64,000 nucleotides of DNA, from the sequence record PP418985.1; one strand, written 5' to 3'. This stretch comes from Escherichia phage UPWr_E1. The translations under genes and the position numbers were made by a program. The notes beneath the pieces are model-generated. The model worked only from the letters and a program-made list of their open reading frames with translations, did not search any database and was not told where the DNA came from. This document shows positions 22,366 to 56,082 of the stretch, one piece after another; positions within the stretch are counted from its first letter, which is position 1; each line of letters starts with the position of its first letter.

Positions 22366-22378
22366 TTCAAAAAAGTTG

Positions 22379-22407
22379 TTGACAGGGGATCACCGATCCC
22401 CTATACT
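22379..22407 (+). promoter_or_regulatory. PeSL-type early promoter (hairpin spacer)
   Basis: TTGACA, 17-nt palindromic spacer ggggatcaccgatcccc, TATACT. Confidence 0.55.
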
Positions 22408-22441
22408 ACACACATACCGAAACGAACTAGGAGAATCAATT

Positions 22442-22621: not shown

Positions 22622-22640
22622 TTTAACGAGAGGTAACTAA

Positions 22641-22907: not shown

Positions 22908-22908
22908 C

Positions 22909-23229: not shown

Positions 23230-23286
23230 TGTAATATAACAATCATTGGGAGGGGCAATACTCTCCCACAAATTGAGGATAATATT

Positions 23287-23589: not shown

Positions 23590-23596
23590 AAAGTTG

Positions 23597-23625
23597 TTGA
23601 CAGGGGATCGGTGATCCCCTATAAT
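23597..23625 (+). promoter_or_regulatory. PeSL-type early promoter
   Basis: TTGACA, palindromic spacer ggggatcggtgatcccc, TATAAT. Confidence 0.55.
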
Positions 23626-23659
23626 GCACACATACCAACGAGATATAGGAGAATCAAAA

Positions 23660-23827
23660 ATGTTCCAGACTAAAGCAGAATGCGAAGCATACATTGTAGC
23701 AAACCACGGTGAAGACTACCTGAAATTCGATATCGTAGTAGCACAGAAGATCACCGGAATGGTTGCAAAATATCTGGGTGTTAAAGAAGGTTACTATCCA
23801 AGCAACGCACCGGAAATTAACAAATAA
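23660..23827 (+). CDS. Hypothetical protein, 55 aa
   Basis: ATG after RBS aggagaatcaaaa. Confidence 0.45.
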   Translation: MFQTKAECEAYIVANHGEDYLKFDIVVAQKITGMVAKYLGVKEGYYPSNAPEINK

Positions 23828-23830
23828 TAG

Positions 23831-23859
23831 TTGACAATGATTAAAGGGAGTAGTAAGAT
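23831..23859 (+). promoter_or_regulatory. PeSL-type early promoter
   Basis: TTGACA; hairpin gggag-tagtaagata-ctccc containing -10. Confidence 0.5.
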
Positions 23860-23892
23860 ACTCCCATCAAGACAACAAACGGAGAATCAAAA

Positions 23893-24072
23893 ATGAAAGC
23901 TATCGAAGTTCAGAAGTACATGGAAATCATCGTTGAAGGTAAAGCACATACAGTATTGACTACTCACGTAGGATATGATAAAAATGTGCATATGCTGGTA
24001 GACAATATCGGTTGGATGAAGTTTAATCCTAACGAGAATGTACAAGCTCAAGAAATGACCATCCCTTTCTAA
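23893..24072 (+). CDS. Hypothetical protein, 59 aa
   Basis: ATG after RBS ggagaatcaaaa; below track cutoff. Confidence 0.4.
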   Translation: MKAIEVQKYMEIIVEGKAHTVLTTHVGYDKNVHMLVDNIGWMKFNPNENVQAQEMTIPF

Positions 24073-24084
24073 GAGGAATATATT

Positions 24085-24363
24085 ATGATGCGAATTACTG
24101 CAACACTGGATAAGACACACAAAGAAAGATTTTTCGGTATGATCTTAAAAACGCCGATTTTCGATAATTACCTTTATGTTGACTATGAAGGTCACATTAG
24201 CTATAAATGTAAAAATGATATTCGTGATTCCTTTGGTGATAAATCACAAGCTGATATTCATGACCACTGGTGGACCTTCGACGAACCTTTACGGATTATC
24301 GCAGTTGATGTAAAAACAATAAAAGAAGCTGATAAGGTAGTTAACAATTATGAGCAAATTTAA
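24085..24363 (+). CDS. HxHW-family small protein
   Basis: 92 aa; LYVDYEGHISY..IHDHWW..IIAVDV. Confidence 0.5.
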   Translation: MMRITATLDKTHKERFFGMILKTPIFDNYLYVDYEGHISYKCKNDIRDSFGDKSQADIHDHWWTFDEPLRIIAVDVKTIKEADKVVNNYEQI

Positions 24364-24559
24364 AGATTATAAAGCATATCAACAGATCCTGCGAGTATAC
24401 GAACCAGAGTTCGCCGAAAAGATGATGGAAGATGCATCAAAATGCCCGTCCTTTTCTGGAAACAAAAACCATTATTCGACTGGTATTGTGTCATGGAAAG
24501 AAACCGCATATACTCAACAATGGATAGATGTGTTTTCAAAAACTCTTGAGTGGTGTTAA
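24350..24559 (+). CDS. Small protein, 69 aa (MSKFKDY paralog 1)
   Basis: MSKFKDYKAY...MMEDA...W.VF; tandem paralog of next ORF. Confidence 0.5.
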   Translation: MSKFKDYKAYQQILRVYEPEFAEKMMEDASKCPSFSGNKNHYSTGIVSWKETAYTQQWIDVFSKTLEWC

Positions 24560-24561
24560 TT

Positions 24562-24777
24562 ATGAGCAAATTTAAAGATTATCGAGCATATAAAGCGATC
24601 TGCGATATATTCGATGAAAAGACCGCTCATGCAATGATGGAAGATGCAGAACAATATGAATCATTCGTCAATTCCAAAGATTGCACAGTAAACGGGATTG
24701 TGTGCTGGAAAGATACAAAGTATGAAGAAAAATGGATTACCGTGTATTACGGAGAACTAGAATATGAAATTAACTAA
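24562..24777 (+). CDS. Small protein, 71 aa (MSKFKDY paralog 2)
   Basis: MSKFKDYRAY...MMEDA; tandem paralog of previous ORF. Confidence 0.5.
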   Translation: MSKFKDYRAYKAICDIFDEKTAHAMMEDAEQYESFVNSKDCTVNGIVCWKDTKYEEKWITVYYGELEYEIN

Positions 24778-25066
24778 AAAGATTTTCCCAGAATTGCGTA
24801 ACTGTCTGTTATTGGTTACTGAATATAAGCCGTATACGATCTACTTGTATGTTGATGAAAATCTGAAAATCCGTTACTATGATTATACGTCTCCAGTGAT
24901 GAAATCATTTGCTCACTCGATAGCAAATAACTGTATGAATCATAATCATTGGGTATCAGAAACGGATGACGATGCGTCAGAAGTTGTAGTGGTTGCATGG
25001 AATCTATCACCAGCGGAAGCAGATCAAGCACGCATTAAGCATTATGCGAAAAAACAATTGGTTTGA
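24764..25066 (+). CDS. HxHW-family small protein
   Basis: 100 aa; LYVDENLKIRYY..NHNHW..VVVVAW. Confidence 0.5.
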   Translation: MKLTKKIFPELRNCLLLVTEYKPYTIYLYVDENLKIRYYDYTSPVMKSFAHSIANNCMNHNHWVSETDDDASEVVVVAWNLSPAEADQARIKHYAKKQLV

Positions 25067-25089
25067 CCTTATAAGTGAGGACTAATATT

Positions 25090-25368
25090 ATGTTCAAAGT
25101 AGGTGATAAGTTTATTCTTAGTCGTGATATTCTCCCTAATCTGAAAGGTTGTATCATCAATCCTAGTAAAAATTCATGGTTTTATCTGTTTATCGACGAT
25201 TCTCTAAATGTACGCGCCGAATATAAAGAAGGTCTTCGTACTGGCCTCGGTTTCTTTCACGATCACGATCATAGCCATTGGCTAAACGGTGGATTCGAAG
25301 CAACGGTGCTAGCGGTTGATGTGACCTACACAAACATCATAGAAAAATACCAAAAAATTATTTTATAA
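25090..25368 (+). CDS. HxHW-family small protein
   Basis: 93 aa; LFIDDSLNV..HDHDHSHW..VLAVDV. Confidence 0.5.
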   Translation: MFKVGDKFILSRDILPNLKGCIINPSKNSWFYLFIDDSLNVRAEYKEGLRTGLGFFHDHDHSHWLNGGFEATVLAVDVTYTNIIEKYQKIIL

Positions 25369-25374
25369 AAAGTG

Positions 25375-25403
25375 TTGACATAAGATCGGGTGTATAGCAT
25401 AAT
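25375..25403 (+). promoter_or_regulatory. PeSL-type early promoter
   Basis: TTGACA; hairpin gggtgtat-agcataa-tacaccc containing CATAAT. Confidence 0.55.
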
Positions 25404-25449
25404 ACACCCATCGAAACGAGATACACTTTCTAACTAGGAGAATCAAATT

Positions 25450-25737
25450 ATGGCATACATCACTATCACGCTGAAAGTTAACAAATTTGCTCACGCTGCA
25501 CACGAAACCGATAATGCAATCCGTAACAACAAGTTTGCACGTCTGGTACGCGATGCAGTAGCTAAAGAGTTCAACTTCAAATTTGCAGATGGTAAAGTTA
25601 TCACTAAATGGACTCATGGCGGCGAAACTAAAGTAGAACTTGCTGATAACTTCGCAAATCAGGAATATGCACACCGTCGCATTAATGAAATTATCAGCGA
25701 CGAACTCTACTACGGTGTACAGGAAGGACTGTTTTAA
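25450..25737 (+). CDS. Hypothetical protein, 95 aa
   Basis: ORF after conserved leader and RBS. Confidence 0.5.
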   Translation: MAYITITLKVNKFAHAAHETDNAIRNNKFARLVRDAVAKEFNFKFADGKVITKWTHGGETKVELADNFANQEYAHRRINEIISDELYYGVQEGLF

Positions 25738-25743
25738 TATATG

Positions 25744-25764
25744 GGGGCGTTAACGCCCCTTTTC
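25744..25764 (+). terminator. Rho-independent terminator
   Basis: ggggcg-ttaa-cgcccc followed by tttt. Confidence 0.6.
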
Positions 25765-25787
25765 ATCCAACTATTGAGGATAATACT

Positions 25788-26093
25788 ATGAAAGATAATA
25801 TCTTTGAATTTACCCGCGAAAATCTCCCAATGTTCCGAAAGTCTCTGCTTAAACTAGATAACAGTAATTATGATGTATATTTTTACATCACAGAAGACCT
25901 AGAGATCCTTTACGCTGATTACCCTGGTCCGATCCGTACTTTCGAAAAAGCATCAAAGTATAAAAATGTGCACGGTCACACGCACTGGCTACGAGAAAAT
26001 TCAGTCAAGAAAGCGCGCGTTAAAGTGATTGCAATTGACGTAACGCCGGAACATGCTGACCGGATTGCACAGAATGATTATTTGTCTAAATGA
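25788..26093 (+). CDS. HxHW-family small protein
   Basis: 101 aa; YFYITEDLEILY..HGHTHW..VIAIDV. Confidence 0.5.
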   Translation: MKDNIFEFTRENLPMFRKSLLKLDNSNYDVYFYITEDLEILYADYPGPIRTFEKASKYKNVHGHTHWLRENSVKKARVKVIAIDVTPEHADRIAQNDYLSK

Positions 26094-26101
26094 TTTTATT
26101 A

Positions 26102-26124
26102 GCCGACCTTAGTGTCGGCTTTTT
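26102..26124 (+). terminator. Rho-independent terminator (copy 1 of repeated cassette)
   Basis: gccgac-cttagt-gtcggc followed by ttttt; identical hairpin at 26607. Confidence 0.65.
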
Positions 26125-26151
26125 ATTGCCAAAAATTTTTTAAAAAAGGCA

Positions 26152-26180
26152 TTGACACCAGATCCTGTATATAGCATAAT
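26152..26180 (+). promoter_or_regulatory. Early promoter
   Basis: TTGACA-17-CATAAT then acacccatcgaaacga leader. Confidence 0.5.
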
Positions 26181-26207
26181 ACACCCATCGAAACGAGATT
26201 GAGGGAA

Positions 26208-26393
26208 ATGAAGATGAAGATTTTATACAAGCATGGATGGTATAAAGTAAAAGCTATCGCCGATGGAGTCAAATATGAAGTGATTGTATTTGACGGATTC
26301 AACACTTATTGCGAAGATGTTAAATTGCCTTCAATGGGATGTGCTTATGATTATTGCAAACAAAGAATTGATAATAAAGCCAACTGCTTCTGA
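26208..26393 (+). CDS. Hypothetical protein, 61 aa
   Basis: ATG after RBS gaggga; 4 Cys residues. Confidence 0.45.
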   Translation: MKMKILYKHGWYKVKAIADGVKYEVIVFDGFNTYCEDVKLPSMGCAYDYCKQRIDNKANCF

Positions 26394-26606
26394 CCCGCTA
26401 AATGACGTAGAACCGCCAACTTGCAAAGCGGACTGTCCTTATAGACAAGAATTTAGGGGGGTATGATTTGCAAAGAAATGCTCTAAGAACCGAAACGGTT
26501 AGCATGGTCAGCAAATATCGATGCGGTTGGAATATTAAGCCTGGTAGGATTGGCGGTCATCCTCTAGATTATGAGGCTTGCATATATAGCAAGAATTTTA
26601 AAATGT

Positions 26607-26630
26607 GCCGACCTTAGTGTCGGCTTTTTT
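26607..26630 (+). terminator. Rho-independent terminator (copy 2 of repeated cassette)
   Basis: gccgac-cttagt-gtcggc followed by tttttt. Confidence 0.65.
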
Positions 26631-26654
26631 ATTTCCAAAAAATTAAAAAAGTTG

Positions 26655-26683
26655 TTGACACCTGATCACGCCTATAGCATAAT
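26655..26683 (+). promoter_or_regulatory. Early promoter
   Basis: TTGACA-17-CATAAT. Confidence 0.5.
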
Positions 26684-26723
26684 ACACACATCGAAACGAG
26701 ATACCACTTAGGAGAATCAAACA

Positions 26724-26993
26724 ATGGCACTGACTAAAACCACTACCAGCTTTGCAAAACGTCACGGTTTCGACCTTGAAATCAATAGCTTTGAAGATTA
26801 CACCCTTCTGTGTGTATATGAAATCGAAAATGATTGCGAGTGGATGTTCAGCTATCGCGTAAACGAAGACGGATCTTTCACTTGGAACGGAAATATCTAT
26901 CTTGCACAGGAAGTAAAAGAAGAACTTCCGGCGACTATCAAAGATGAGAAACATTTACGTCAAGTTTTAAAATTTATTTCTGAAAATATCTAA
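26724..26993 (+). CDS. Hypothetical protein, 89 aa
   Basis: ORF after RBS taggagaatcaaaca. Confidence 0.5.
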   Translation: MALTKTTTSFAKRHGFDLEINSFEDYTLLCVYEIENDCEWMFSYRVNEDGSFTWNGNIYLAQEVKEELPATIKDEKHLRQVLKFISENI

Positions 26994-27002
26994 AAAAAGT
27001 TG

Positions 27003-27031
27003 TTGACACCAAAGTAAGAACATAGCATAAT
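27003..27031 (+). promoter_or_regulatory. Early promoter
   Basis: TTGACA-17-CATAAT. Confidence 0.5.
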
Positions 27032-27064
27032 ACACCCATACCGAAACGAACGGGAGAATCAAAA

Positions 27065-27346
27065 ATGAAATTCATCAAAGCAACCGAAATCCTGAAAAAC
27101 AAAGAAGCATACATCGGAAACATCGTTGGTATGAACATTCGCGGCGCGGGTAGCCAGTGGACCAAACTGGTTGATGTTAAAGCTAAAGGCGATAAAATCG
27201 AGTTCACTGTAAAAATGCTTACTCATAACGCACATATGGGTATCAAGACAAAAACTATGGCAGCAGATAAAAGCATCAACTATCAAGACCTGGGCGATTG
27301 GCTGAACTGGTGCAAAATGTACAACATCGAAACTAATCACGAATAA
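27065..27346 (+). CDS. Hypothetical protein, 93 aa
   Basis: ORF after RBS gggagaatcaaaa. Confidence 0.5.
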   Translation: MKFIKATEILKNKEAYIGNIVGMNIRGAGSQWTKLVDVKAKGDKIEFTVKMLTHNAHMGIKTKTMAADKSINYQDLGDWLNWCKMYNIETNHE

Positions 27347-27360
27347 TTTTAAAAAAGTTG

Positions 27361-27390
27361 TTGACGGGGGATCGGGAGATCCCCTATAAT
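27361..27390 (+). promoter_or_regulatory. PeSL-type early promoter
   Basis: TTGACG, palindromic spacer ggggatcgggagatcccc, TATAAT. Confidence 0.55.
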
Positions 27391-27430
27391 ACACACATCA
27401 AGACGAGATACTACTTAGGAGAATCAAACA

Positions 27431-27682
27431 ATGGCTAACATCGAAACCGCAAAGAAAATCGCTAAAGACCTGAACGTTAAAGGCTTCCGTAAACTGAAAT
27501 TACAGCGTGTACGCTACACCATCGGCAAACAGTGCTCTTTCATGAGCGAAGAAGTTGCTAACAGCCTCATCGATAATCTGATTGCGGCTGGCTGGGAAGT
27601 TGCGGATCTGAAAACTTGCCGCGAACTGGCTAACAAAGGTCTTTTAGATTCTGTTACTATCAAACCAATGGGGGCAGCGTGA
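27431..27682 (+). CDS. Hypothetical protein, 83 aa
   Basis: Starts MANIE, sharing its first 16 nt with ORF 29565. Confidence 0.5.
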   Translation: MANIETAKKIAKDLNVKGFRKLKLQRVRYTIGKQCSFMSEEVANSLIDNLIAAGWEVADLKTCRELANKGLLDSVTIKPMGAA

Positions 27683-28395
27683 AACAAAAATTAATATTCT
27701 GCAACTTTGACGGATCGGGGATAATGGGGCTAGAATGGGCTAAAGCAGGTCATAAGGTGATCTGCTTTAATGCTGACGATGGCGACCACGGTACATACAA
27801 AAAATATAATACCCGATTTGAACATCCAAACATTACCTATGTAAACACATGGATTGATTTGAACTGGCTGGAAAGAGCAATGGACCTTGAATGGGGGAAA
27901 CCGGATATTATATTTGCATTCCCACCGTGCACCAATTTAGCTGTTAGTGGCGCTGCACACTTTGAACGAAAGAAACGAGAGCAAGGACCATTAATTCAAG
28001 TTCATGATGTAAGGGCAGCTAAAATAACCGCTTATTTGGGCGAATGGTTAGGAGTTCCCTACATGATAGAGAATCCTGTAAGCGTTATCTCTAGCATGTG
28101 GCGTAAGCCTGATTATATGTTCCATCCGTGGGAATATGGCGGTTATTTGCCGGAAGATGATAAACATCCTACGTTTCCTGAGTATATTGCCGCCCGTGAT
28201 ATGTACCCGAAAAAGACTTGCTTATGGACCGGACAAGGCTTTATAATGCCAGAAAAGAAACCGTTGCAGATTAATAAAGGGTACAGTAAACAGCATTCTA
28301 AGCTAGGCGGGAAAGGAACCAGAACAAAGACTATCAGGTCACTTACACCGCGAGGATTCGCAAAGGCAGTATTTGAAGCCAATAAGGATCTATGA
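27679..28395 (+). CDS. DNA (cytosine-5)-methyltransferase-like protein
   Basis: 238 aa; motif I-like FDGSGIMGLEWAKAGHKVICFNADD, motif IV-like FPPCTNLAVSG, motif VI-like ENP; short for a complete C5-MTase. Confidence 0.4.
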   Translation: MKQKLIFCNFDGSGIMGLEWAKAGHKVICFNADDGDHGTYKKYNTRFEHPNITYVNTWIDLNWLERAMDLEWGKPDIIFAFPPCTNLAVSGAAHFERKKREQGPLIQVHDVRAAKITAYLGEWLGVPYMIENPVSVISSMWRKPDYMFHPWEYGGYLPEDDKHPTFPEYIAARDMYPKKTCLWTGQGFIMPEKKPLQINKGYSKQHSKLGGKGTRTKTIRSLTPRGFAKAVFEANKDL

Positions 28396-43875: not shown

Positions 43876-46419
43876 ATGTCTAACAAAATCAATGTATTAC
43901 ATCAAACAGAAGGTCCGGTTTATGGTTCCGTTGGTCGTCCACTTCTGTTAAAGATTGTTGTCAGTACAGCAGATTTTAAAGATTTTATAGCAGAATGGAA
44001 GCTGAACGGTGTAAATGTGCCAGCAGAACAAATTTCCGACGCGGATCAGTCTCTGTATATTGAGGAAATGCGAGAAAATCAATTTGGTACATATACATGT
44101 CACATTAAACTGAAAGACGAACCACAGGTCGGTGTAGATATTAAGCCTATTCTTGTACAGCGTAGATTTTTTATTGCACCGCAAGATCAGTCTCCGACGT
44201 ATATTAAAAAACGAATCGGCGAAGAATTAACCCTATTCGCAACACCAGCAATTGAACTAGGTCAACACCCAGAGTTTCAATGGTATCGAAATCATATTCC
44301 GGTAGAACCAGAAAAAATCGAGGACAACCGAACCGTTCATATTGCCCGTGTTGGTCTTATTGATTTTGGCAATTATACGTGTCGTGTTACTGTCCGTGGT
44401 GAACCAGCATCACAATATTGGATTAATCCAATTATTGTAGAAAAGAATGATACCCCTCCTGTAGTGCATCTTAGCGAAGAATATCCTAGCTCTATTACAG
44501 TAGCAGAGGATTCAGCGGTACATCTCAATGTACTTGTTACATCAGATGATAAAGTATCGCCTATTGAGTATACGTGGATTCATAACGGTAGGATTGTTAT
44601 CGAAGAAAACGGAAACTCTTTGGCAATTCCGCATATTCGAAAAGATCAGGAAGGTATCTGGCGTCTTGAGGTAAAACAAGGTGACACTACGGTGTATTCT
44701 AAAGATTGTCATATTGAGGTTGATAGTCAACCATTCTTTAGGATCACACGTCAACCGCAAACTCTTAACGTGTCTGGCGGTGCTTTGGGTTTATTCAGCG
44801 TTGATTATAGAACAAACTATTCACCTGTAAAGATCCAGTGGTATCGTAAAAAGAATACAGAACAGGAGTTTACACCAATTGTAGGTGAGACTAATAAAGA
44901 TCTTCATATTACACCAGCTACTACTGAATTAAACCGAGCACGCTACAAAGCTCGTATCACGTATGGCACAGACCAATACAGAGATTCAGAAGAAGCTGAA
45001 TTGCTAGTAGGTGAAGCATTAACTATTAGAATCACCAAACAACCACAAGCTCTACAAAACGTCCGAGTTTCTTCCTCACAGACGATCACTTGTGAAGCTG
45101 AAACAAACTATGAACATTATCGCTTAGATTATCAGTGGTATAAAGATAACGAATTAATGCCAGGCAAAACATCTAATGTATTGCACTTCTCATCAATCAA
45201 AAAGACAGATGAGGGGCAATATAAGTGTATTGCATCAATGGGTATTTCTGGTCATCGAATTACCGCAGAATCATCACCAGCACAGGTGACAGTAGACAAT
45301 TCAAAGGCATCACTGACTATCACTAAACAGCCAACTGGTGCAACAATTCGCACTGGTGGGTCGTGGTCTATTTCGGTCGAAGCAACATCAAACGATGCAC
45401 TACCGATTCGCTATCGCTGGTTTAAAGACGGCGAAGATCTATTCCCACAAGGCGTTGAACAAAAAAACGTTTACGGTGAAGACCATGCTCAACCTGATTC
45501 GACTGGTGTATATACTTGTCGCGTTTCGGTTGGTTTTGGTGATCACCGAGCGTCTCAAATGTCACATCCAGCAAGGGTGCTAATTAGCGATAATGTGGAA
45601 ATTGTGCCGAATGACTTACAGGTCACCGCACATCCTCATGATAATGACGTTAAGTATAATCAGCGTGTTATCTTAACAGCAAGATCTCAAAATAGCATCG
45701 GGTTAAAACCACATATTCAATGGAAAAAGGATGGTGTTGCTATTCCGGGTGCAAATTCAGAGACTTTAGTCATTGAGCACGCGAAACCATTGGATGCAGG
45801 GGTTTACACCGCAGATATTACCGCAGCAGAAAAAACGGTAACAACCAATCCGGCTACAGTTACTGTAGCAGAGCACAGCAATATTAATATCTTAAAACAT
45901 CCAGTGGATGTGGTTGCAAAAGAAGGACAAACCACCGACATTGTATTGGAAGCTCATGCGGAACATTCTGACGGTGAAACCGAAGTTAGTTATCAGTGGC
46001 ATAAAATTAAAGATGGCGTAGACACTGAAATAAGAGATGCAACAAATAAAACTTTAGTTATCCCTCATGCACAGATCAGCAAGCAAGCTCATCAAGCGAC
46101 CTATTACGCCGAGATAAAAGAAGAGAATGGACACGTTAAACATAGCGAAAAAGTTCGAGTGGTGTTTACTACCGCGAAATTAAAACGCTATGTTCACCCG
46201 ATCCCGTGGCGACGTACATCCTTCCAGTATCAAGGCTATTGGGTTATGGATGAGATTGATCGCTGTAATCGTGAAGGGCTTAACTGGCTTGAGGACTTTA
46301 CGCACACCAAATATCCAGAAGAGATCGAAACTATTGCTGCATCATTGCATCATTATTCAAATACTCATGTATTAGAATCTCGTAATGGTTATCTGGTTGA
46401 TGGTACTCAACTATTTTAA
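43876..46419 (+). CDS. hoc: Hoc-like capsid decoration protein with multiple Ig-like domains (long form)
   Basis: 847 aa; repeated I-set Ig-like units (W[YF]K[DN]G...Y.C); C-terminal capsid-binding-like YVHPIPWRRTSF domain shared with next gene. Confidence 0.65.
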   Translation: MSNKINVLHQTEGPVYGSVGRPLLLKIVVSTADFKDFIAEWKLNGVNVPAEQISDADQSLYIEEMRENQFGTYTCHIKLKDEPQVGVDIKPILVQRRFFIAPQDQSPTYIKKRIGEELTLFATPAIELGQHPEFQWYRNHIPVEPEKIEDNRTVHIARVGLIDFGNYTCRVTVRGEPASQYWINPIIVEKNDTPPVVHLSEEYPSSITVAEDSAVHLNVLVTSDDKVSPIEYTWIHNGRIVIEENGNSLAIPHIRKDQEGIWRLEVKQGDTTVYSKDCHIEVDSQPFFRITRQPQTLNVSGGALGLFSVDYRTNYSPVKIQWYRKKNTEQEFTPIVGETNKDLHITPATTELNRARYKARITYGTDQYRDSEEAELLVGEALTIRITKQPQALQNVRVSSSQTITCEAETNYEHYRLDYQWYKDNELMPGKTSNVLHFSSIKKTDEGQYKCIASMGISGHRITAESSPAQVTVDNSKASLTITKQPTGATIRTGGSWSISVEATSNDALPIRYRWFKDGEDLFPQGVEQKNVYGEDHAQPDSTGVYTCRVSVGFGDHRASQMSHPARVLISDNVEIVPNDLQVTAHPHDNDVKYNQRVILTARSQNSIGLKPHIQWKKDGVAIPGANSETLVIEHAKPLDAGVYTADITAAEKTVTTNPATVTVAEHSNINILKHPVDVVAKEGQTTDIVLEAHAEHSDGETEVSYQWHKIKDGVDTEIRDATNKTLVIPHAQISKQAHQATYYAEIKEENGHVKHSEKVRVVFTTAKLKRYVHPIPWRRTSFQYQGYWVMDEIDRCNREGLNWLEDFTHTKYPEEIETIAASLHHYSNTHVLESRNGYLVDGTQLF

Positions 46420-46463: not shown

Positions 46464-47696
46464 ATGGCATTTACAGTAGCACTAAAATCAAATAAAAAAT
46501 GTTTCCTTGCTGGCGATACATTTAAATTAACGGCTACATTAGCTGGGGTGGAAGATGGTCCGGTCCCATCAAATGTTACCTATGCATGGACTAAAAATGA
46601 TCAGCCAATTGAAAATGAATCAAATGTATTAACGGTCTCTAACGCAACAGCCGAGAGCGCCGGAAAATATAAAGTATCCGTTACTGACACAGACACACAA
46701 GAAGTGGTAGAATCTGCGGTTGTGTCAATGGCAGAAGCAGAATTAGTAGTTAAAATTAATCATCCATCTAGCTACGTCGCATTCGATGAGGCGGTAGAAT
46801 TAACAACTACGGTTTCATATTCAACCGGATTTGCACCGTCTAGCAATTACCAGTTGCATTATAAATGGGAACAAGATCAAACAAATTTAAACCATAGCGA
46901 AAGCACATTATCGATCAGCAACTTCGTCGATGACAACAATGGCGTTTATAAGGTTACTGTATGGGGCGAGTCAGAAACATCAGCGGACAGCGCCAGTGTT
47001 AAACTTGCAGCAATCTCTATATCTGTAGTTGAAGATGTACCACTGGCAAAAACCGTCGCAATGGGTAAACCGATCACACTACCTTATCGCACGATGGGTG
47101 TTTCTATCGGTGACACGTCAGGTCTTCCGGCATTATCAACTAAACAGTCATGGTATTTGCAGCGAGAAGGACAACCGCGCCCGACACTGATCGGGAGTGA
47201 GGTTGGGGAGGCATTGGAAGGGTTTTCTATCATGCCTAACGGCTATTTGCACAAAGAAGCTGCAACAATGGACGACACCGCTAACTTTTGGTGTATCGTA
47301 GAGTTGCTTCAAGAAATTGACGGGCAGCCAGTACCAATCGAAGAAAAAGGTAGCTCTCATTGCGCACTGGAAGTTGTAGAATCACTTCATAAGATGTTCC
47401 GGTATGTGCACCCGATCCCGTGGCGCAAAACTTCGTTTATCTATATTGGATGGTGGGTATTCGACGAGATCGTTAAATTCAATGAGGCAGGGTTAGAATG
47501 GAGAAACCGTGAAGTTTACGAGGATAGCAAATATGCAAGCGACATCGAGACGATCGCGGCAGCGGAAGAAAAATATAGTGATTGCACTTGCATGGAATCT
47601 CGCAATGGTTTCATGTATCAGTCCAAAGAGTTCCATAAACTGGACCGAGAGACATTAGAGCGTGTCCTGCGCATTCGTGAAACGCCTCCTGCTTAA
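46464..47696 (+). CDS. Second Hoc-like protein (short form)
   Basis: 410 aa from MAFTVAL; Ig-like repeats plus the same C-terminal YVHPIPWRKTSF domain. Confidence 0.6.
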   Translation: MAFTVALKSNKKCFLAGDTFKLTATLAGVEDGPVPSNVTYAWTKNDQPIENESNVLTVSNATAESAGKYKVSVTDTDTQEVVESAVVSMAEAELVVKINHPSSYVAFDEAVELTTTVSYSTGFAPSSNYQLHYKWEQDQTNLNHSESTLSISNFVDDNNGVYKVTVWGESETSADSASVKLAAISISVVEDVPLAKTVAMGKPITLPYRTMGVSIGDTSGLPALSTKQSWYLQREGQPRPTLIGSEVGEALEGFSIMPNGYLHKEAATMDDTANFWCIVELLQEIDGQPVPIEEKGSSHCALEVVESLHKMFRYVHPIPWRKTSFIYIGWWVFDEIVKFNEAGLEWRNREVYEDSKYASDIETIAAAEEKYSDCTCMESRNGFMYQSKEFHKLDRETLERVLRIRETPPA

Positions 47697-49850: not shown

Positions 49851-51092
49851 TTAAGCGTTGTCAATCTCAAGTGGTGGCAGTTCGATTCCTAAAATGTAGG
49901 ACATTTCAGAGCGTCCAGCCATTTTACCCCAATCGTCACCCTTGATGATCTGGTGTTCTTCCTGATCAACTTTTGATGTATATGGGTTGACAGAGAGTGA
50001 ATAACGATTCATAATAGCTACATGATGCTGGAAGCTATTAGGATCAATTACGCTCTTATACGCGCCAGCGCCATCGGCTTCTGTGTATGGGGAGTAGAAC
50101 AGCGAACCTACGCTCTCCATATCACCGATCATGTGCTTACAGCCAACTAGCATATAATCGAACGGCGTTACCGTGTCTGCGTACACTTCCAGACCGCAAC
50201 GTAGACGTCCTTCGCTTAGAGCGTTGTCGGTTTCTTCCATCCATCCGGTAGACTGCAACAGACCAACTACGCGAGAAGATGCTAAAACGTATGTGCCAGC
50301 AAAGGAGGAAGTACGCAACATTTGATTGCTCATTTCGCAAGCATAGCGGTAAAGTTCACGAGCTTGTTTTGGTGCATCCTGAACGCCAACGAGAGAAAGT
50401 ACACCATCAGTGGTGATTCCTTTAATTTTATAGCGAGTTGATACAGTGATCAACTTCTGCATAATATCTTTGTTGATCTCTTCGGAAGCGACAGTAGCCA
50501 GAAGGTCGATCACAGAATTTTCAGAATTGATTTGGCTTGCCTCAAGATCCTGCATTAATTCAGTGGTGAACGAGGTTTTCAGTTTACGAGAACCTACATT
50601 AACTTGCCACTTGTCAAACTGCATAGAGGTAGACGCAATTTCGGTGTTTTTATCTTCAAAGTATTCTACCGATGCACAATCGCTATAGAAACGAATTTTG
50701 TTTGTCATTACGCCTTTAAAGATCGCAGCTTCTGGAGTTGCGGAATCTTCGCTAACTCGACCAGCAACAACAGCTTGATAAACTACGTCGCCAGATTTAA
50801 ACAGATCACCGATCTTGTATTCTTTTTCCTGTGAAAATTCTTCGATCTCTGTACGATCACCAGCCGCGCCACCGTAGGTTGCAGCAGTTCGGAAAGTCAT
50901 CTGACCATCACGATTAAGATAACGTAGGCCGTACAATGCAGATACTGGTTGATCCGTTGGCTGGATTGCTACCAGATCAGAGAAAATCAGGTTGTTTACC
51001 GCGCGAGTTAATGATAATAGTTGCGGTCGCGCTGTCTGGTTAGCTACTGAGGAAGTAGATTCCCGCAACAGTTCAGTAAAAATATGAGTCAT
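49851..51092 (-). CDS. 24: Head vertex protein gp24
   Basis: 413 aa from MTHIFTELL; gp23-like capsid fold; position downstream of gene 23. Confidence 0.75.
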   Translation of the reverse strand: MTHIFTELLRESTSSVANQTARPQLLSLTRAVNNLIFSDLVAIQPTDQPVSALYGLRYLNRDGQMTFRTAATYGGAAGDRTEIEEFSQEKEYKIGDLFKSGDVVYQAVVAGRVSEDSATPEAAIFKGVMTNKIRFYSDCASVEYFEDKNTEIASTSMQFDKWQVNVGSRKLKTSFTTELMQDLEASQINSENSVIDLLATVASEEINKDIMQKLITVSTRYKIKGITTDGVLSLVGVQDAPKQARELYRYACEMSNQMLRTSSFAGTYVLASSRVVGLLQSTGWMEETDNALSEGRLRCGLEVYADTVTPFDYMLVGCKHMIGDMESVGSLFYSPYTEADGAGAYKSVIDPNSFQHHVAIMNRYSLSVNPYTSKVDQEEHQIIKGDDWGKMAGRSEMSYILGIELPPLEIDNA

Positions 51093-51129
51093 GTTTATGA
51101 ATCCTGTATTTGCCTTAATGGATATATCA

Positions 51130-51137
51130 TATTTATA
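51130..51137 (-). promoter_or_regulatory. Late promoter TATAAATA for gene 24
   Basis: Plus-strand tatttata about 40 nt upstream of the gene 24 start. Confidence 0.55.
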
Positions 51138-51140
51138 CAA

Positions 51141-51168
51141 AAAGAAAAGGGAATCCCGAAGGATTCCC
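51141..51168 (-). terminator. Rho-independent terminator (minus strand)
   Basis: gggaatcc-ttcg-ggattccc followed by tttt on the minus strand. Confidence 0.6.
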
Positions 51169-51176
51169 AAATAAAA

Positions 51177-51329
51177 TTACTTCTTCCTAGAAACATTATC
51201 AACGCTACGGTTAACTTTGTTTACAAGATTAATTGCATGATCAGAACGAATAATTGCATAAGCTAATGCTAACATCAATTCGTCGTATTCCTTACGAGTC
51301 ATAACATAGCTGTTTTCTTTCTTACTCAT
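51177..51329 (-). CDS. Hypothetical small protein, 50 aa
   Basis: Strong RBS AAGGAGG; MSKKENSYVMTRKEYDEL...; below track cutoff. Confidence 0.4.
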   Translation of the reverse strand: MSKKENSYVMTRKEYDELMLALAYAIIRSDHAINLVNKVNRSVDNVSRKK

Positions 51330-51339
51330 GCATTCCTCC

Positions 51340-52272
51340 TTATGGAGAATTTGGGGTTAATTCAGGGAACAGCGTGCCAAAACCAAAATTACCGCTAGCG
51401 TCACGCTGGAATGTCATAACAAGGTCGACATAAACCGGATCTGTAAATCTATCAAATCTATCCGACCCAATATCAACCATGAACGCTAATTTAATCTCAT
51501 TAGAATTTGAGATCGCAGCGTCAGCACATGCACCAAAAATTACCTGAGTATCTTTTGCCGTATATGCATTGACCTGTATGTTGGTTGGTTTCATTACATC
51601 GTTAGACAAACCAGATAGTTCTACTCGTCCATTAAATGACGCCAGACTTTGACCACCGCCTAGATAATGAATATGACCACCTTGTGAAGATTGTGTCCAG
51701 TCCATTAGCATAACCTTAAATCTAGCCTCAAAACGCCCTTCCACGTAATATCGACCAGTTTCAAAGTTTTGTCTAATTGGTGTCCATGTGATGTGTGGTT
51801 TTCCGCTTACAGGATCGACAAGAGTCACACCTACGGCTGGCTTAATACTGACACTATCAAATGAACGTGATAGCCAATTCCATGTTTGATTGTCTAGGTT
51901 TGGCAATTGTGGAATATTCAATCCATCTAATCGGCTGTGTGCTCGTGCTGCTTCCGATTCTGCGGTAGTCGCTTTAGTCAGTGCATCAGTTGCTTTGCTC
52001 ATGGATTGCCCTGCCGTTCGATCGGCAACATCAGCAGTTGATTTTGCAATCTCTGCCGTTCGATGTGCTGAACTTGCTGTTTCTGTTATTACGTCATCGC
52101 ACGCAATAACAAAATCAATTACAGGATCGATCAATTGAGTGTTGATTGAGTTGGAAATTCGTTCAACATCACTTTCCATTAGAGCATTAGATTCATTTCC
52201 TGTGAAATGAGTAATTTCACCTTGAACAAAATCATTTTGCAACTTGCTGATCTTTGCTTTAATATCGGTCAT
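51340..52272 (-). CDS. Fiber-like protein (helical N-terminus, beta-rich C-terminal domain)
   Basis: 310 aa; Ala/Thr-rich helical N-terminal third then globular domain; RBS GGGTGA. Confidence 0.55.
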   Translation of the reverse strand: MTDIKAKISKLQNDFVQGEITHFTGNESNALMESDVERISNSINTQLIDPVIDFVIACDDVITETASSAHRTAEIAKSTADVADRTAGQSMSKATDALTKATTAESEAARAHSRLDGLNIPQLPNLDNQTWNWLSRSFDSVSIKPAVGVTLVDPVSGKPHITWTPIRQNFETGRYYVEGRFEARFKVMLMDWTQSSQGGHIHYLGGGQSLASFNGRVELSGLSNDVMKPTNIQVNAYTAKDTQVIFGACADAAISNSNEIKLAFMVDIGSDRFDRFTDPVYVDLVMTFQRDASGNFGFGTLFPELTPNSP

Positions 52273-52287
52273 GAATCACCCCGCTAA

Positions 52288-54006
52288 TTATTGTGCTTGC
52301 TCTGGAAGTGCTTGTATATTTTCTATAGTAGCACCCCATTTAACGGCATTTAAACGAGCTTTGTGCATATCGTCTTCTCCGACTATTGCCGCAAAACCCT
52401 TTTTAGCGTGGAAATTCGCCCATGTGTTATATGCTAGTGCACCTACGCGTTTTGCTGTGTCGTGTTCAACTTCATCAACCATCAGCATTGTGCGGAAAGG
52501 TGCAAATGCTACATCTGGGTTATCGTCTTGTGTCCATGAACCACCATTAAACGACACCTGCCACCTGAACATCTCACCAGACGGAATTTGATTAATTCTC
52601 AACTTTAGAGATCTTGTTTTCTGGTTTTTCTGAGTTACGTCTAGTGGAACCTGATATCTAGCCGCTTGTCGTTCTCTACCATCATTCATCCTATGCCATG
52701 CGGTAACAACAAGCATAACCGGAATTGTGTTTGATGTTTTAATAAAACTAACATCAACTAAAAGTTCCATATCATAGCTACCAGATTTAGGCGCAACCCA
52801 CCAATGGTCGGCATCAGCTTGTCGATCTGGCTCTTTAATCTGTGGTGTGCATCCATAGTTATCATGAATGACATACTTCCACGGAATGTAAAAAGCACCA
52901 CCGCCAGTTCCTGGATTTGTAACTTCGAGTAGATTTTGTGCAGTGGTAAACACGCTTGACACGCGAGGGAAAGCATAAATGGTAGCACCACCAGTGTGAT
53001 CGCTGATCTGTAACCATTCGGTCCATCGATCAGTTCTCTTTGTATAGGAACGGTGATACATTACGCCATCAATGCTTGTTGCGATCTGCAATACATGATC
53101 TTTACATGCATGAACATCTACAGAACCATGTGTTTGTGTTCCATTTGGACGGTTTGCCGACCCCTCAAAGTAACAGAAACGGCCTTGTTTAGTCAAGGTG
53201 TTTAGGTCTAGCGTTTCTGGCGAAATTTCCGGTAGACGTTTACCCAGACTGGTTAACATCGCCTCCTGATCACCATTTAAACCACCGCCACCACTTCCTT
53301 CCCCGCTTTGAGAGTTCCACTCACGCCATGCACCATTGTGTCGGATGCGAGAGTAAACACCACCATCAATAGAACGGACCACTTGAAGAATGCTACCATC
53401 GACGACATATACATCTGCGGACCCCTTATTCGCCATCATTGGAGGTTTGCCATAGGTTGCATCACCTACCGGATAGCGTCCGGGTGATGTGGTTACATCC
53501 AGATTGTTAATTGGATTCGTCGTAGTCCATTTTACCTCAATTGCAGATAGACGCTGCGCAACGTTCGCTAATACTTCTGGTACTGGAAATACAAGAGATT
53601 CCTGTGTTCCGTCTGAGTACGTGACTTCTAGAGTCCAGTTGCGATCGTCCTCGGACAAATTCGCTTCGATTCTAGCAATGCCACGACCATTTTCGCCCTT
53701 CTCACCAGGAATACCCTGTTCACCCTGAATAACCCAGGTCATATCGACCCATTTTGATTTATCGTAGGGAGATTGTGCTGTTTTACCAGTCCATAATTGG
53801 AGTTTTTCGCCACAAACAATAATTGTTTTTAGTCTTTCCAATTCTGGAAAATGTTCGGTAAAATATTCATCCCTAGCTTCTTCATTTTCGAAACGGTGAG
53901 TATTTTTAATTCCGCTAGGTACGTTAGTTCCGATCTGAATACCACCACCAGAACAACCACCACTCACGGAACCAGCATTAATGATAGCTTGTGGATTTAG
54001 CTTCAT
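52288..54006 (-). CDS. Fiber/receptor-binding-like protein with short collagen-like G-X-Y stretch
   Basis: 573 aa from ATG (track ORF begins at an upstream TTG); GEQGIPGEKGENGRG triplets, glycine-rich linkers SGGCSGGG and GEGSGGGG. Confidence 0.55.
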   Translation of the reverse strand: MKLNPQAIINAGSVSGGCSGGGIQIGTNVPSGIKNTHRFENEEARDEYFTEHFPELERLKTIIVCGEKLQLWTGKTAQSPYDKSKWVDMTWVIQGEQGIPGEKGENGRGIARIEANLSEDDRNWTLEVTYSDGTQESLVFPVPEVLANVAQRLSAIEVKWTTTNPINNLDVTTSPGRYPVGDATYGKPPMMANKGSADVYVVDGSILQVVRSIDGGVYSRIRHNGAWREWNSQSGEGSGGGGLNGDQEAMLTSLGKRLPEISPETLDLNTLTKQGRFCYFEGSANRPNGTQTHGSVDVHACKDHVLQIATSIDGVMYHRSYTKRTDRWTEWLQISDHTGGATIYAFPRVSSVFTTAQNLLEVTNPGTGGGAFYIPWKYVIHDNYGCTPQIKEPDRQADADHWWVAPKSGSYDMELLVDVSFIKTSNTIPVMLVVTAWHRMNDGRERQAARYQVPLDVTQKNQKTRSLKLRINQIPSGEMFRWQVSFNGGSWTQDDNPDVAFAPFRTMLMVDEVEHDTAKRVGALAYNTWANFHAKKGFAAIVGEDDMHKARLNAVKWGATIENIQALPEQAQ

Positions 54007-54013
54007 ATAATAA

Positions 54014-54322
54014 TTACCCCCGTTTAGCAAGATACACGGTTACAGTAGAATCATTGGAAACAGATTTTACTTTTGCCCTAATAAATGACCATAATGTTTC
54101 AAACGCTCCACCATCAGTTGCATATTCATTACCATCAGCTTTCAATTCTGAAATAGTGAACCAACCTTTGCCATCTAAGGAACCTTCTAACGAGGCTTCC
54201 GCAATGACTTTTTGCCCTTCCCGTGCACCCTCTACGGTCATCTGTACTGTCATGTGCGTACTATGAACGCAGTTTACCGACGCGGAAACGGCTGGAGTTT
54301 TGGTCTTTATAAGTGTGTGCAT
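54014..54322 (-). CDS. Hypothetical protein, 102 aa
   Basis: RBS AAGGGGAG; preceded by a late promoter. Confidence 0.55.
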   Translation of the reverse strand: MHTLIKTKTPAVSASVNCVHSTHMTVQMTVEGAREGQKVIAEASLEGSLDGKGWFTISELKADGNEYATDGGAFETLWSFIRAKVKSVSNDSTVTVYLAKRG

Positions 54323-54360
54323 CTAATTTTCGCTCCCCTTAGAATATAGGCTTGCAACCT

Positions 54361-54368
54361 TATTTATA
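54361..54368 (-). promoter_or_regulatory. Late promoter TATAAATA for the three-gene insertion
   Basis: Plus-strand tatttata about 40 nt upstream of the start at 54322. Confidence 0.55.
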
Positions 54369-54382
54369 ACGGGATATAATAC

Positions 54383-54413
54383 GCAAAAAGGGAAGACCCT
54401 TTCGAGTCTTCCC
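54383..54413 (-). terminator. Rho-independent terminator downstream of gene 23
   Basis: gggaagac-tcgaaagg-gtcttccc followed by ttttt on the minus strand. Confidence 0.6.
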
Positions 54414-54483
54414 TTTGGAATTAACACTTTACACTGTCATAAGGTTTATGATAAGTCGGGCATTGCACCCGACCGGAGTTTAA

Positions 54484-56082
54484 TTAGCAACCTTTAACCC
54501 ATACACGGCGGAAGTATGCGTTTTTACCTACGCTGTCTTTGCTCAACATACCGGAGGTGATGCGAGCGGACGGTGCCTGGGTTTTGCTGTCTGCAAACGG
54601 GTTAATACCGATGCCGTAGCGAGTCTTGAAGCCCAGAACCGGGTGGAAAGACTGCGGATCGGTTGCACGCAGCGGAGTCAGAGCAACATACGGCGCATAG
54701 TAGATACCAGCATCCATTTCGTTGTCGCCTTTGTAGCCTACGGTGAAGTAGTCCTGACGAGCATACTGGTCGATGAATACTTTGTACTTACCAGCCAGAA
54801 CACCAGCGAAAACAGCTTTAGTGGTGTCGGTATTCAGACCTTTTGCAGCACCCTGCATAGCAACACTGATACCCTGATCAGCAGAAGCCAGAATGTTTAC
54901 AACGTTACGGGAAGCGATAACAAAGTTACCAGCACCGCGACCAGTCTGACGAGCGATTTCAGCAGCTTCTTTGTCGATCTGGTAGATCAGAGATTTGAAG
55001 GATTCACCAGCCCAACGAGCACCGCGAGTATCGATCGGGTCTTGCAGGTCAAATACACCAGCTTTAGAACCAACGGTCTGAGTCATACCAGTCTTACCAA
55101 CCTGTGCGGTAAAGTTGATAACGTCAACGATTTCACGGTTGATTTCCAGCAGAACTTCGTTAGCCAGGATAGCATTCAGTTCAGCGTCAGCATCCATACC
55201 GTGTACAGCACGCAGATCCTGCGCAACTTCGATAGAATAACGAGCTTTCAGTTGGCGAGATTTCGCTTCAACAACCTGTTTGTCAATACGCATCGACATT
55301 TCAGCCCACGGGTTATTGCTGGAACCGTTAAAGCCTTCCTGAATTTCGGCAATGGAAGTAGCCATACCGAAAGCGATTTCAGCCAGTTTACCTTCTTCCA
55401 TCAGCTTCATGACCACTTCATCTTCGGATTCATCACCTGATTTCTGCGGAGTTACTGCGCTAGAAGTTACGTTTTGCAGATATGCAATACCAGTGTCTGC
55501 AAACGTGTGATGTACAATGTCTCCCGGTTGGATCTGGGTAGATAATGCCAGTTTAGCGAATGCAGTACCAGTAGGAGAACCAGTCGTTGCATTTTTTGCT
55601 GCCAGAGAGCTATGGAACACATCTGGCGCATACATCGGGTGGAATGCTTCACGAACATTTTTAGGATTACCACCAGCCAGCGGGTCTGGACCGTATACAG
55701 AACGGATTGCAAAGATCTGGCTAGTCGGGGTGCTCATAGGCTGAACGCCACAAATATCAAATGCAATCAGGTTAGGAATAGCACGGCGAACCATACCGAT
55801 AACAGCCGGACCTACGTTAGTGATTGCACCGCTAGTCTGACCTGCCGCAATCTGGGATGCGTCGTAACCGTGGTCGCCAGCAACTTCGGCTTCGGCGATA
55901 AAACCACCGAATGCTTCAACAACTTTTTCATCCTTATAGATCGGATCTACAGCAAAATCCGCTTCCTGAGATTCCAGAATTTTAGCAACCAGTTTCTGCT
56001 TAGACGCAGTTGCGATTTCCGGCAGTTTTTCGTTCTCCAGCAGCGGGGACCATTTTTCCATCAGTTCTTTGGTAGTTTTCAT
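54484..56082 (-). CDS. 23: Major capsid protein gp23
   Basis: 532 aa; long stretches match T4 gp23 (MVRRAIPNLIAFDICGVQPM, NPWAEM, AKSRQLKA.YSIE.AQDLRAVHGMDADAEL, YFTVGYKG.NEMDAGIYYAPYVALTPLR). Confidence 0.95.
   Translation of the reverse strand: MKTTKELMEKWSPLLENEKLPEIATASKQKLVAKILESQEADFAVDPIYKDEKVVEAFGGFIAEAEVAGDHGYDASQIAAGQTSGAITNVGPAVIGMVRRAIPNLIAFDICGVQPMSTPTSQIFAIRSVYGPDPLAGGNPKNVREAFHPMYAPDVFHSSLAAKNATTGSPTGTAFAKLALSTQIQPGDIVHHTFADTGIAYLQNVTSSAVTPQKSGDESEDEVVMKLMEEGKLAEIAFGMATSIAEIQEGFNGSSNNPWAEMSMRIDKQVVEAKSRQLKARYSIEVAQDLRAVHGMDADAELNAILANEVLLEINREIVDVINFTAQVGKTGMTQTVGSKAGVFDLQDPIDTRGARWAGESFKSLIYQIDKEAAEIARQTGRGAGNFVIASRNVVNILASADQGISVAMQGAAKGLNTDTTKAVFAGVLAGKYKVFIDQYARQDYFTVGYKGDNEMDAGIYYAPYVALTPLRATDPQSFHPVLGFKTRYGIGINPFADSKTQAPSARITSGMLSKDSVGKNAYFRRVWVKGC

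Follow-up and report, generated by a model that had tools for sequence, protein, structure and literature searches.

What is encoded between the genes for gp23 and gp24 of a T4-like phage, and what would it add to the virion? This question is raised by Escherichia phage UPWr_E1 (PP418985.1), of which a stretch of 64,000 nucleotides, called the window in the following, was analysed computationally. According to the list of open reading frames (ORFs), the minus strand of this window carries four successive ORFs at 51177-54322 between the gp23 and gp24 genes, a site at which T4 harbours a homing endonuclease gene. A previous, sequence-only reading had described them as a late-transcribed, fibre-like gene set inserted between genes 23 and 24. 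The analysis presented here indicates that the locus is probably a dispensable late-gene module for virion-borne accessory fibres (auxiliary adhesins), the presence of these fibres in the virion being deduced from fold and late expression only.

The transcription unit and its products

The four ORFs encode proteins of 102, 572, 310 and 50 amino acids (aa). Compared with orthologues in G2248 and JK32, all of them display ratios of nonsynonymous to synonymous substitution rates (dN/dS) of 0.08-0.15, the same range as gp23 (102-aa gene: 0.08-0.11; 572-aa gene: 0.10-0.15; 310-aa gene: 0.10-0.15), and hence represent real genes under purifying selection. Their organisation as a late transcription unit, framed by the gene 23 terminator and the gene 24 late promoter, was proposed earlier and is borne out by the ORF positions together with the promoter and terminator signals, both framing signals being located in the sequence (Table 1). 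Likewise, the late promoter assumed at 54361 corresponds to a TATAAATA box at 54368-54361 (-). As this box is not enriched in the window (9 found vs 5.2 expected), the late-promoter calls rest on position and on established T4-type late transcription, not on statistics. At the end of gp23, a terminator scan reported an overlapping, weaker pairing, and the G2248 record annotates a terminator at the same place; the hairpin closing the fibre unit is annotated at the same place in G2248 and GEC-3S. In contrast, the length of 573 aa originally given for the largest protein had to be corrected to 572 aa, since all homologues begin with MKLNP and the conserved start is the ATG at 54006.

The 572-aa protein is composed of an N-terminal module, a collagen-like G-X-Y run, two knobs and a C-terminal head. 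Both the run and the glycine-rich linkers had been noticed from the letters alone and are indeed present: the glycines of the run, GEQGIPGEKGENGRG, are invariant or nearly so across 21 homologues, one of which is short of exactly one triplet, and a Gly-rich linker connects the knobs. The Pfam Collagen model (PF01391) gave no match to this protein because 4-5 triplets are too few to score; the homologous module of Vibrio phages contains 6 G-X-Y triplets. Knob 1 and knob 2 follow the same motif pattern and are 31% identical (E 2e-11). Structural comparisons were based on an AlphaFold model of the monomer, which displays a mean predicted local distance difference test (pLDDT) score of 60 and reaches 80-93 for residues ~400-520. 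In Foldseek searches against the Protein Data Bank (PDB), this model matched phi812 baseplate fibre chains (E 4.5e-10 and 1.2e-8) and the knob region of the R1 pyocin fibre (6cl5, E 1e-7), while its C-terminal domain yielded dozens of TNF/C1q matches, including TNF, TL1A, CD40L, APRIL and Caprin-2 C1q, with a probability of 1.0 and target-normalised template modelling (TM) scores of 0.5-0.73. Among the predicted viral structures of BFVD, tail-fibre, BppU, tail-collar-fibre and C1q-domain phage proteins were found. As judged from the model, the protein contains a tandem knob fold of the pyocin/phage tail-fibre type (pLDDT ~65-80 in these segments) and terminates in a TNF/C1q-like jelly-roll head, the latter being predicted on the monomer. 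The fibre- or receptor-binding-like character formerly read from composition alone can now be based on fold matches and on the internal duplication of the knob.

A 1025-aa protein that occurs in >100 Vibrio phage records has an N-terminus homologous to residues 38-136 of the 572-aa protein, the G-X-Y run included (hhalign 94%, E 1.5e-7). The sequence SGGC in the 572-aa N-terminus could be taken for a sign of a lipoprotein, but this reading was dismissed, as the Cys is not conserved and a hydrophobic leader is missing. In phage Brandy (MZ504876), the orthologue exhibits a 1-nt deletion (single A) in a TTTAAA (T3A3) run near record position ~98,830, corresponding to window position ~53275, by which it is split into two annotated coding sequences (stretch L001 of MZ504876, 3790-5519). 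Either a sequencing error or a genuine truncation behind knob 1 may underlie this deletion.

For the 310-aa protein, the beta-rich C-terminal domain suggested before was retained, whereas the plain helical N-terminus turned out to be a conserved module of ~60 residues followed by an alanine-zipper coiled coil. Its model (mean pLDDT 76) comprises a continuous helix at 33-117 and subsequently a beta sandwich at 135-295. The Pfam model Alanine_zipper (PF11839) scored 23.1 bits on residues 62-116, equal to its gathering score, and the NCBIfam model Ala_zip_lipo stayed below its cut-off. Since no signal peptide or lipobox is found in the N-terminal sequence, the resemblance to Lpp/OprI is one of the coiled coil only and the protein is not a member of the Lpp family. 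Structural comparison of the model revealed that the fold of the head resembles the pyocin-fibre foot and phage receptor-binding heads; on this modelled structure, the C-terminus is a beta-sandwich head of the receptor-binding-head/foot type on a predicted trimeric stalk. The N-terminal module is characterised by the motif F.QGEI..ITG.....LME.DV.RIS..IN..LI.PVIDF and also heads a 614-aa protein of phage JK32 as well as 454-aa and 982-aa fibres of a metagenomic contig (L010, see below), with coiled coils of very different lengths. Among isolates, this module is present in the five phages bearing the gene set (the cassette) only, which fits a docking partner inside the cassette.

With the 102-aa protein, an exhaustive profile search retrieved 56 representative relatives, mostly stand-alone proteins of ~100 aa. 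One homologue constitutes the N-terminal part of a 594-aa GDSL esterase of Pseudomonas phage Orisa03, and in P0092 a 102-aa-like domain precedes a pectate-lyase-like domain. Furthermore, in a few short, high-GC metagenome contigs, the family is flanked by phrog_684, a structural protein of the internal-virion type, on one side and by small fibre proteins with the GYGITD tail-fibre motif on the other. The 102-aa protein reads as a companion of fibre genes and might serve in assembly, as an adaptor or as a tip subunit. Comparison of the family profile with the PDB gave a sub-threshold CBM32-like motif (E 0.085) too weak to use; a weak FlgD/FlgE match was dismissed as noise, and long multi-repeat matches of the profile (FN3, Big_3 and discoidin repeats) probably reflect generic beta-sandwich similarity and were not taken as evidence. 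In Orisa03, the esterase belongs to a receptor-binding-type gene cluster after the lysis genes (L006, 7974-13019), together with a 134-aa "SurE", a 306-aa collagen-repeat and a 627-aa pectate-lyase-like protein; the two last-mentioned proteins are not homologous to the fibres of the window.

The 102-, 572- and 310-aa sequences gave no match in the PDB, and Pfam, NCBIfam and PADLOC returned nothing beyond the alanine zipper for these three proteins, PADLOC producing weak coiled-coil noise only (JetC, E 5e-4) and hence no defence-system match. A precomputed label, PF27308, is attached to three homologues; the Pfam search did not reproduce it. The hidden Markov models (HMMs) A1, A2 and A4, compared with the proteins of Phi1 and of the window, revealed no similarity to Wac, gp9-gp12, gp34, Hoc or any other protein. 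When all Phi1 ORFs, wac among them, were scanned with the A2 profile (hmmsearch), no match and thus no homology to fibritin was detected, and none of the three proteins carries an Ig or Hoc C-terminal motif by which it could be grouped with the Hoc/Soc decoration proteins.

Table 1 Features of the locus and its surroundings in the window. Domain limits of the 572-aa protein follow alignment A1 of its family, which contains one extra leading residue (subtract 1 for numbering from the Met at 54006).
Feature	Position	Strand	Details
gp23 gene	56082-54484	-	
Intrinsic terminator after gp23	~54384..54413	-	stem GGGAAGAC / GTCTTCCC, then TTTTTG; read directly in the sequence
Late promoter box of the fibre unit, T4-type	54361..54368	-	TATAAATA; 39 nt upstream of the 102-aa ATG
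102-aa gene	54014..54322	-	phrog_16217 family, small beta-rich protein; codons 54322..54017, stop 54016-54014
572-aa fibre gene	52288..54006	-	ATG at 54006, stop 52290-52288
310-aa fibre gene	51340..52272	-	codons 52272..51343, stop 51342-51340
50-aa ORF (phrog_16600)	51177..51329	-	codons 51329..51180; ribosome-binding site AAGGAGG
Intrinsic terminator closing the fibre unit	51139..51168	-	strong hairpin GGGAATCC-TTCG-GGATTCCC and T-run
Late promoter box of gp24	51130..51137	-	TATAAATA; ahead of the gp24 ATG
gp24 gene start	51092	-	ATG
Long Hoc gene	43876-46419	+	847 aa
hoc paralogue	46464-47696		adjoining long Hoc
572-aa protein, N-terminal module	aa ~1-95		
572-aa protein, G-X-Y run	aa ~96-110		followed by a small beta domain
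572-aa protein, knob 1	aa ~165-235		followed by a Gly-rich linker
572-aa protein, knob 2	aa ~265-335		
572-aa protein, C-terminal head	aa ~350-530		TNF/C1q-like jelly roll (predicted)
310-aa protein, N-terminal module	aa ~15-60		
310-aa protein, coiled coil	aa ~60-117		alanine zipper
310-aa protein, head	aa ~135-295		beta sandwich (predicted)

Distribution and ancestry of the gene set

The region matches phages of the genus Krischvirus (RB49/Phi1/JSE group, Straboviridae). A complete set, however, is found in only 5 of the 58 matching Krischvirus records, namely SSG23, SFHK24, Brandy, G2248 and JK32, the cassette of the latter having one additional protein, the 614-aa coiled-coil protein mentioned above. 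In cassette-less Krischvirus phages, the gap between gp23 and gp24 measures ~0.7-0.8 kb and contains the 50-aa ORF together with a 45-aa ORF, which is the C-terminal end of the 310-aa protein (phrog_20809; HMM E 1e-13). Pairwise alignment located identical breakpoints at window positions 51501, 52682 and 54314 in Phi1, JSE, GEC-3S and Makalu_001. In all four phages, 50900-51501 is retained at 96-97% identity, a stretch that covers the final 160 nt of the 310-aa gene. From the 572-aa gene, a decayed piece, extending from 52682 to ~52782-52823 (~100-140 nt, ~71-74% identity), is left in Phi1, GEC-3S and Makalu_001 and is lacking in JSE. At the other end, cassette-less phages have kept 54314-54600 (90-93% match) and with it the late promoter as well as the ribosome-binding site and start codon (ATG) of the 102-aa gene.

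Shared breakpoints and scars of three genes thus argue that the set is ancestral and that the supposed insertion between genes 23 and 24 is a deletion in the relatives. On this alignment evidence, the set is ancestral in the Krischvirus lineage, and most cultured relatives lost it in one shared deletion that was later eroded further; that the scars represent independent acquisitions is, given the shared breakpoints, very unlikely. That an RB49-like backbone recently acquired the genes as a mobile set (moron) could be supposed from their occurrence in so few Krischvirus records and from the synonymous divergence of the fibre genes, which is 2-5x that of gp23. Such an event is nevertheless highly improbable in view of the remnants of the 310-aa and 572-aa genes and of the 102-aa start codon and promoter at identical breakpoints, of the same gene order at the same site in contigs with 38-45% protein identity, and of an ORF list without integrase, transposase, homing endonuclease or flanking repeats. 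The elevated synonymous divergence is a sign of a certain amount of exchange with lineages further away. Within the core genes on either side, the window and the cassette-less phages are 93-98% identical, a value equal to that for Brandy and closer than for G2248 or JK32; hence, the cassette-bearing phages do not form a separate clade there.

The 50-aa ORF behaves differently. It is indeed a gene with a strong ribosome-binding site within the unit, as stated before, but its membership of the variable set could not be upheld: present in all Krischvirus phages examined, it is kept by the cassette-less ones at 98% identity and therefore belongs to the same transcription unit, but lies outside the variable fibre set. 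A 43-aa counterpart exists in metagenomic contig L011.

Each of the three cassette protein families is small: from 5.8 billion sequences, 22, 17 and 5 clusters were obtained at 90% identity. The same arrangement is found in a 169-kb metagenomic T4-like contig (gp23, 100, 561, 303 and 43 aa, gp24; 45% identity) and, in expanded form, in contig L010 (ERZ27260015 k141_207255; gp23, 98, 560, 454, 982 and 382 aa, gp24; 38% identity), whose cassette at 3498-9061 includes three extra coiled-coil proteins (454, 982 and 382 aa). The 382-aa protein of this contig is devoid of the common N-terminal module, but the motif EWADAAITDAGTA is found both in it and in the C-terminal region of the 982-aa protein, pointing to a partial duplication.

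Aeromonas phages 31 and 44RR2.8t encode, immediately behind gp23, a 96-aa protein homologous to the 102-aa one (35% identity), and an unannotated 102-aa match (34% identity) occupies the same site in Stenotrophomonas phage IME13. The 96-aa homologue of phage 31 is followed by a 288-aa protein and then gp24. Both a phage-fibre repeat and a tail-needle knob of the Sf6 type (PF16532, E 4e-27) are present in this 288-aa protein, whose N-terminus reads MILNPKAVLNN, compared with MKLNPQAIINA in the 572-aa protein of the window. Hence, the gp23-gp24 slot repeatedly holds a small protein and a knobbed, predictedly trimeric fibre. As a homologue of either window fibre, Aeromonas ORF163w was rejected, no relation beyond the N-terminal peptide being found.

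A further cassette, consisting of seven genes (~90, ~1020, 46, 96, 182, 398 and 237 aa), is known from Vibrio phages and includes the large protein with the 572-type module. In Vibrio phage 1.017.O (L013, 6625-12974) it is situated after Mu gp47/48-like baseplate genes, and in Vibrio phage 489E54-1 (L014, 6668-12953) between head-tail adaptor and tail-completion genes. From these two sites it follows that the module moves between backbones and that gene position alone cannot place the fibre. The small proteins upstream of the 1025-aa Vibrio fibre were considered as relatives of the 102-aa protein and are not homologous.

Function and place on the particle

The late unit encodes two proteins with the predicted folds of trimeric phage fibres. 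As a possible mechanism, their conserved N-terminal modules, the N-termini being the most conserved parts of both fibre families, might dock the fibres to each other and/or via the 102-aa protein to a site that would be a feature of the common Krischvirus particle. The heads would bind a fairly conserved surface glycan, leading to a reversible pre-adsorption that would be useful on smooth or encapsulated hosts or in mucus and unnecessary on rough laboratory strains. Phenotypes that might be related to such a function have been described for two cassette-bearing phages. Brandy49 displays the broadest host range among the RB49-like phages studied and infects O-antigen-shielded strains, although the O antigen is not its receptor (PMC9569957, PMC10743462). 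Its authors had no consistent explanation for host range and O-antigen passage (PMC10743462), and the cassette locus is not mentioned in either paper. Phage JK32 uses Tsx and loses infectivity upon disruption of the O-chain-length gene wzzB, while RB49 maps only to OmpA (bioRxiv 10.64898/2026.07.23.740414). With respect to the cassette, the phenotypes of both Brandy49 and JK32 are correlations only.

Several observations weigh against accessory fibres of this kind. The heads are fairly conserved across the family, unlike typical receptor-binding tips, which are swapped fast; the published micrographs of SSG23 mention no extra fibres; and the deletion in Brandy, if real, would weaken the link to the phenotype of Brandy49. 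The 572-aa model is modest (mean pLDDT 60) and poor over the first 110 residues, and the whole-protein A1/A2 profiles, N-terminal modules included, tie the fibres to no docking site. Literature searches yielded neither a paper on the locus nor a virion proteome of cassette-bearing phages, nor any mention of additional fibres in micrographs. As virion incorporation is deduced indirectly, the products could also be late proteins that are not particle-bound and act in the cell or after lysis, for instance as free glycan-binding decoys, assembly factors or exclusion proteins, and a cassette moving between backbones as a unit is what a self-contained non-structural function would show. This alternative is nonetheless improbable considering the domain architecture, which is typical of attached trimeric fibres with the N-terminus as the most conserved part, the missing visible signal peptide or lipobox (the lone Cys of the N-terminal region is not conserved), and the lack of any match to defence-system models or enzymes.

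Provided that the accessory fibres are borne by the virion, attachment to the head is possible with somewhat less than an even chance, and the same applies to the neck or baseplate, a smaller share remaining for a site that is unclear. The caution expressed in the sequence-only reading about head versus tail was justified; the evidence on neither side is decisive. Fibres anchored on the capsid, at gp24 vertices or gp23 hexamers and possibly via the 102-aa protein, and acting together with Hoc-type decorations in adhesion by the capsid, would be a tentative and by itself rather unlikely arrangement. It would agree with the gp23-gp24 position, which is conserved across genera down to 38-45% identity, and with an 847-aa "long Hoc" encoded 5 kb from the cassette, which exhibits approximately nine Ig-like domains and a Hoc-type C-terminal capsid-binding domain. 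Its full-length form occurs in exactly the five cassette-bearing phage records, and in Phi1 a deletion scar has left the first 34 codons only (ORF168.1). However, this co-occurrence is not decisive because each loss is a single event and the records are phylogenetically non-independent. The Vibrio cassette of 489E54-1, lying between head-tail adaptor and tail-completion genes, points in the same direction, and a single head fibre is carried by the T4-like Vibrio phages phiSt2 and phiGrn1 (PMC12796354). Yet the same Vibrio cassette stands after baseplate genes in 1.017.O, and in other contigs the 102-aa family follows genes of internal virion proteins at the tail-fibre locus. Little can be concluded from gene position anyway: with a homing endonuclease there in T4, the site may be merely a permissive late-expressed slot. 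Moreover, the cassette proteins have no similarity to the Hoc capsid-binding domain and no sequence match in the PDB, and no decoration protein or phi29 head fibre appears among their top fold matches.

The opposite placement, extra tail fibres mounted on the baseplate or neck as side fibres or receptor-binding proteins and supplementing the long and short tail fibres, is similarly doubtful when taken on its own. Here, the best fold matches are telling, as they comprise the phi812 baseplate, R-type pyocin knobs and foot, AP22 gp53, and lactococcal and Listeria receptor-binding proteins; in addition, the N-terminal module is homologous to that of the 1025-aa protein, which a Mu-like Vibrio myovirus encodes at its tail-fibre position, and the 102-aa family precedes GYGITD tail-fibre-like genes beside internal-virion-protein genes. 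On the other hand, the known tail, neck and fibre genes of T4-like genomes are all located elsewhere, and no module is held in common with Wac, gp9-gp12 or gp34. Knobs and TNF-like heads, furthermore, are not confined to tails, since fibre folds are also located on capsid vertices in the PRD1 P5 spike and the adenovirus fibre. Still less likely, and more far-reaching, is a capsid-borne adhesion suite in which the gp23-gp24 fibres are docked on the head via the 102-aa protein and cooperate with the nine-Ig long Hoc. If true, it would be such a suite, rather than gp38 alone, that lets Krischvirus phages of the Brandy49 type pass O-antigen shields or adhere to mucus, and the laboratory isolates RB49, Phi1 and JSE would belong to a lineage marked by the loss of this suite.

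Accessory fibres and branched receptor-binding systems as such are already well known in phages; host recognition by T4-like phages is normally discussed in terms of long fibres (gp37/gp38) and short fibres (gp12) only. By the present analysis, Krischvirus ancestrally encodes two further, predicted fibre proteins and a second, giant Hoc, and its best-studied members RB49, Phi1 and JSE are deletion derivatives. According to the reading preferred here, that of a dispensable module for virion-borne accessory fibres, three protein families now labelled hypothetical would gain an annotation at the level of function, which is relevant for the choice or engineering of therapeutic T4-like phages, and the 3-kb cassette offers a concrete, easily tested candidate for an unexplained host-range phenotype.

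Further differences of the window and comparison with known systems

Apart from the cassette, the window deviates from Phi1 in a few other places. At 6489-6806, ~0.3 kb are present where Phi1 has ~1.36 kb including ORF240 (460 aa, hypothetical). In the region of small early ORFs at ~22350-27700, the alignment with Phi1 is broken into short pieces by local rearrangement or duplication; here, 23588-23828 also matches Phi1 118587-118826, and 26199-26607 (~0.4 kb) has no Phi1 counterpart.

Among known systems, the R-type pyocin and phage tail fibres (PA0620 / PALES_06171; 6cl5, 6cl6, 6cxb) resemble the cassette proteins in their tandem knobs and lectin-like foot. In contrast to pyocin fibres, to which no sequence similarity is detectable, knobs and foot-like head are here split between two proteins, and the 572-aa protein ends in a TNF/C1q jelly roll where pyocin fibres end in the foot. 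Pyocin fibre genes, moreover, are located beside baseplate genes and accompanied by a chaperone, whereas those of the window lie in a T4-like head-gene block. The PRD1 vertex spike P5, Bacillus BclA and the C1q family are trimers with a collagen stalk and a TNF/C1q head. They are similar in the combination of a short G-X-Y run, spacer domains and a TNF/C1q-type head, but the run of the window protein has only 4-5 triplets, two knobs are intercalated and no sequence relation was found.

T4 fibritin (Wac) is comparable to the 310-aa protein and its longer relatives in the succession of an N-terminal module, a coiled coil of variable length and a C-terminal domain. Unlike fibritin, the 310-aa protein contains neither a foldon nor similarity to the Krischvirus Wac, its C-terminus being a lectin-like beta sandwich, and the own wac gene of Krischvirus is located elsewhere in the genome. 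With T4 Hoc/Soc, phi29 gp8.5, SPP1 gp12 and the vertex fibres of 7-7-1, the cassette shares late expression, dispensability and a position beside capsid genes, and phi29 and 7-7-1 demonstrate that trimeric fibres can sit on capsids (PMC12796354); the cassette proteins, however, gave no PDB sequence match, no decoration or head fibre of this kind is among the top fold matches, and no similarity to Hoc was seen in the HMM searches of the window and Phi1. The Aeromonas pair ORF162w-ORF163w of phages 31 and 44RR2.8t encodes one short fibre (288 aa) and no coiled-coil fibre, and its homology to the 572-aa protein is limited to the first ~12 residues, but it agrees with the cassette in the site itself, the homologous small protein (35%), a TNF-like Sf6 knob fibre and the N-terminal peptide.

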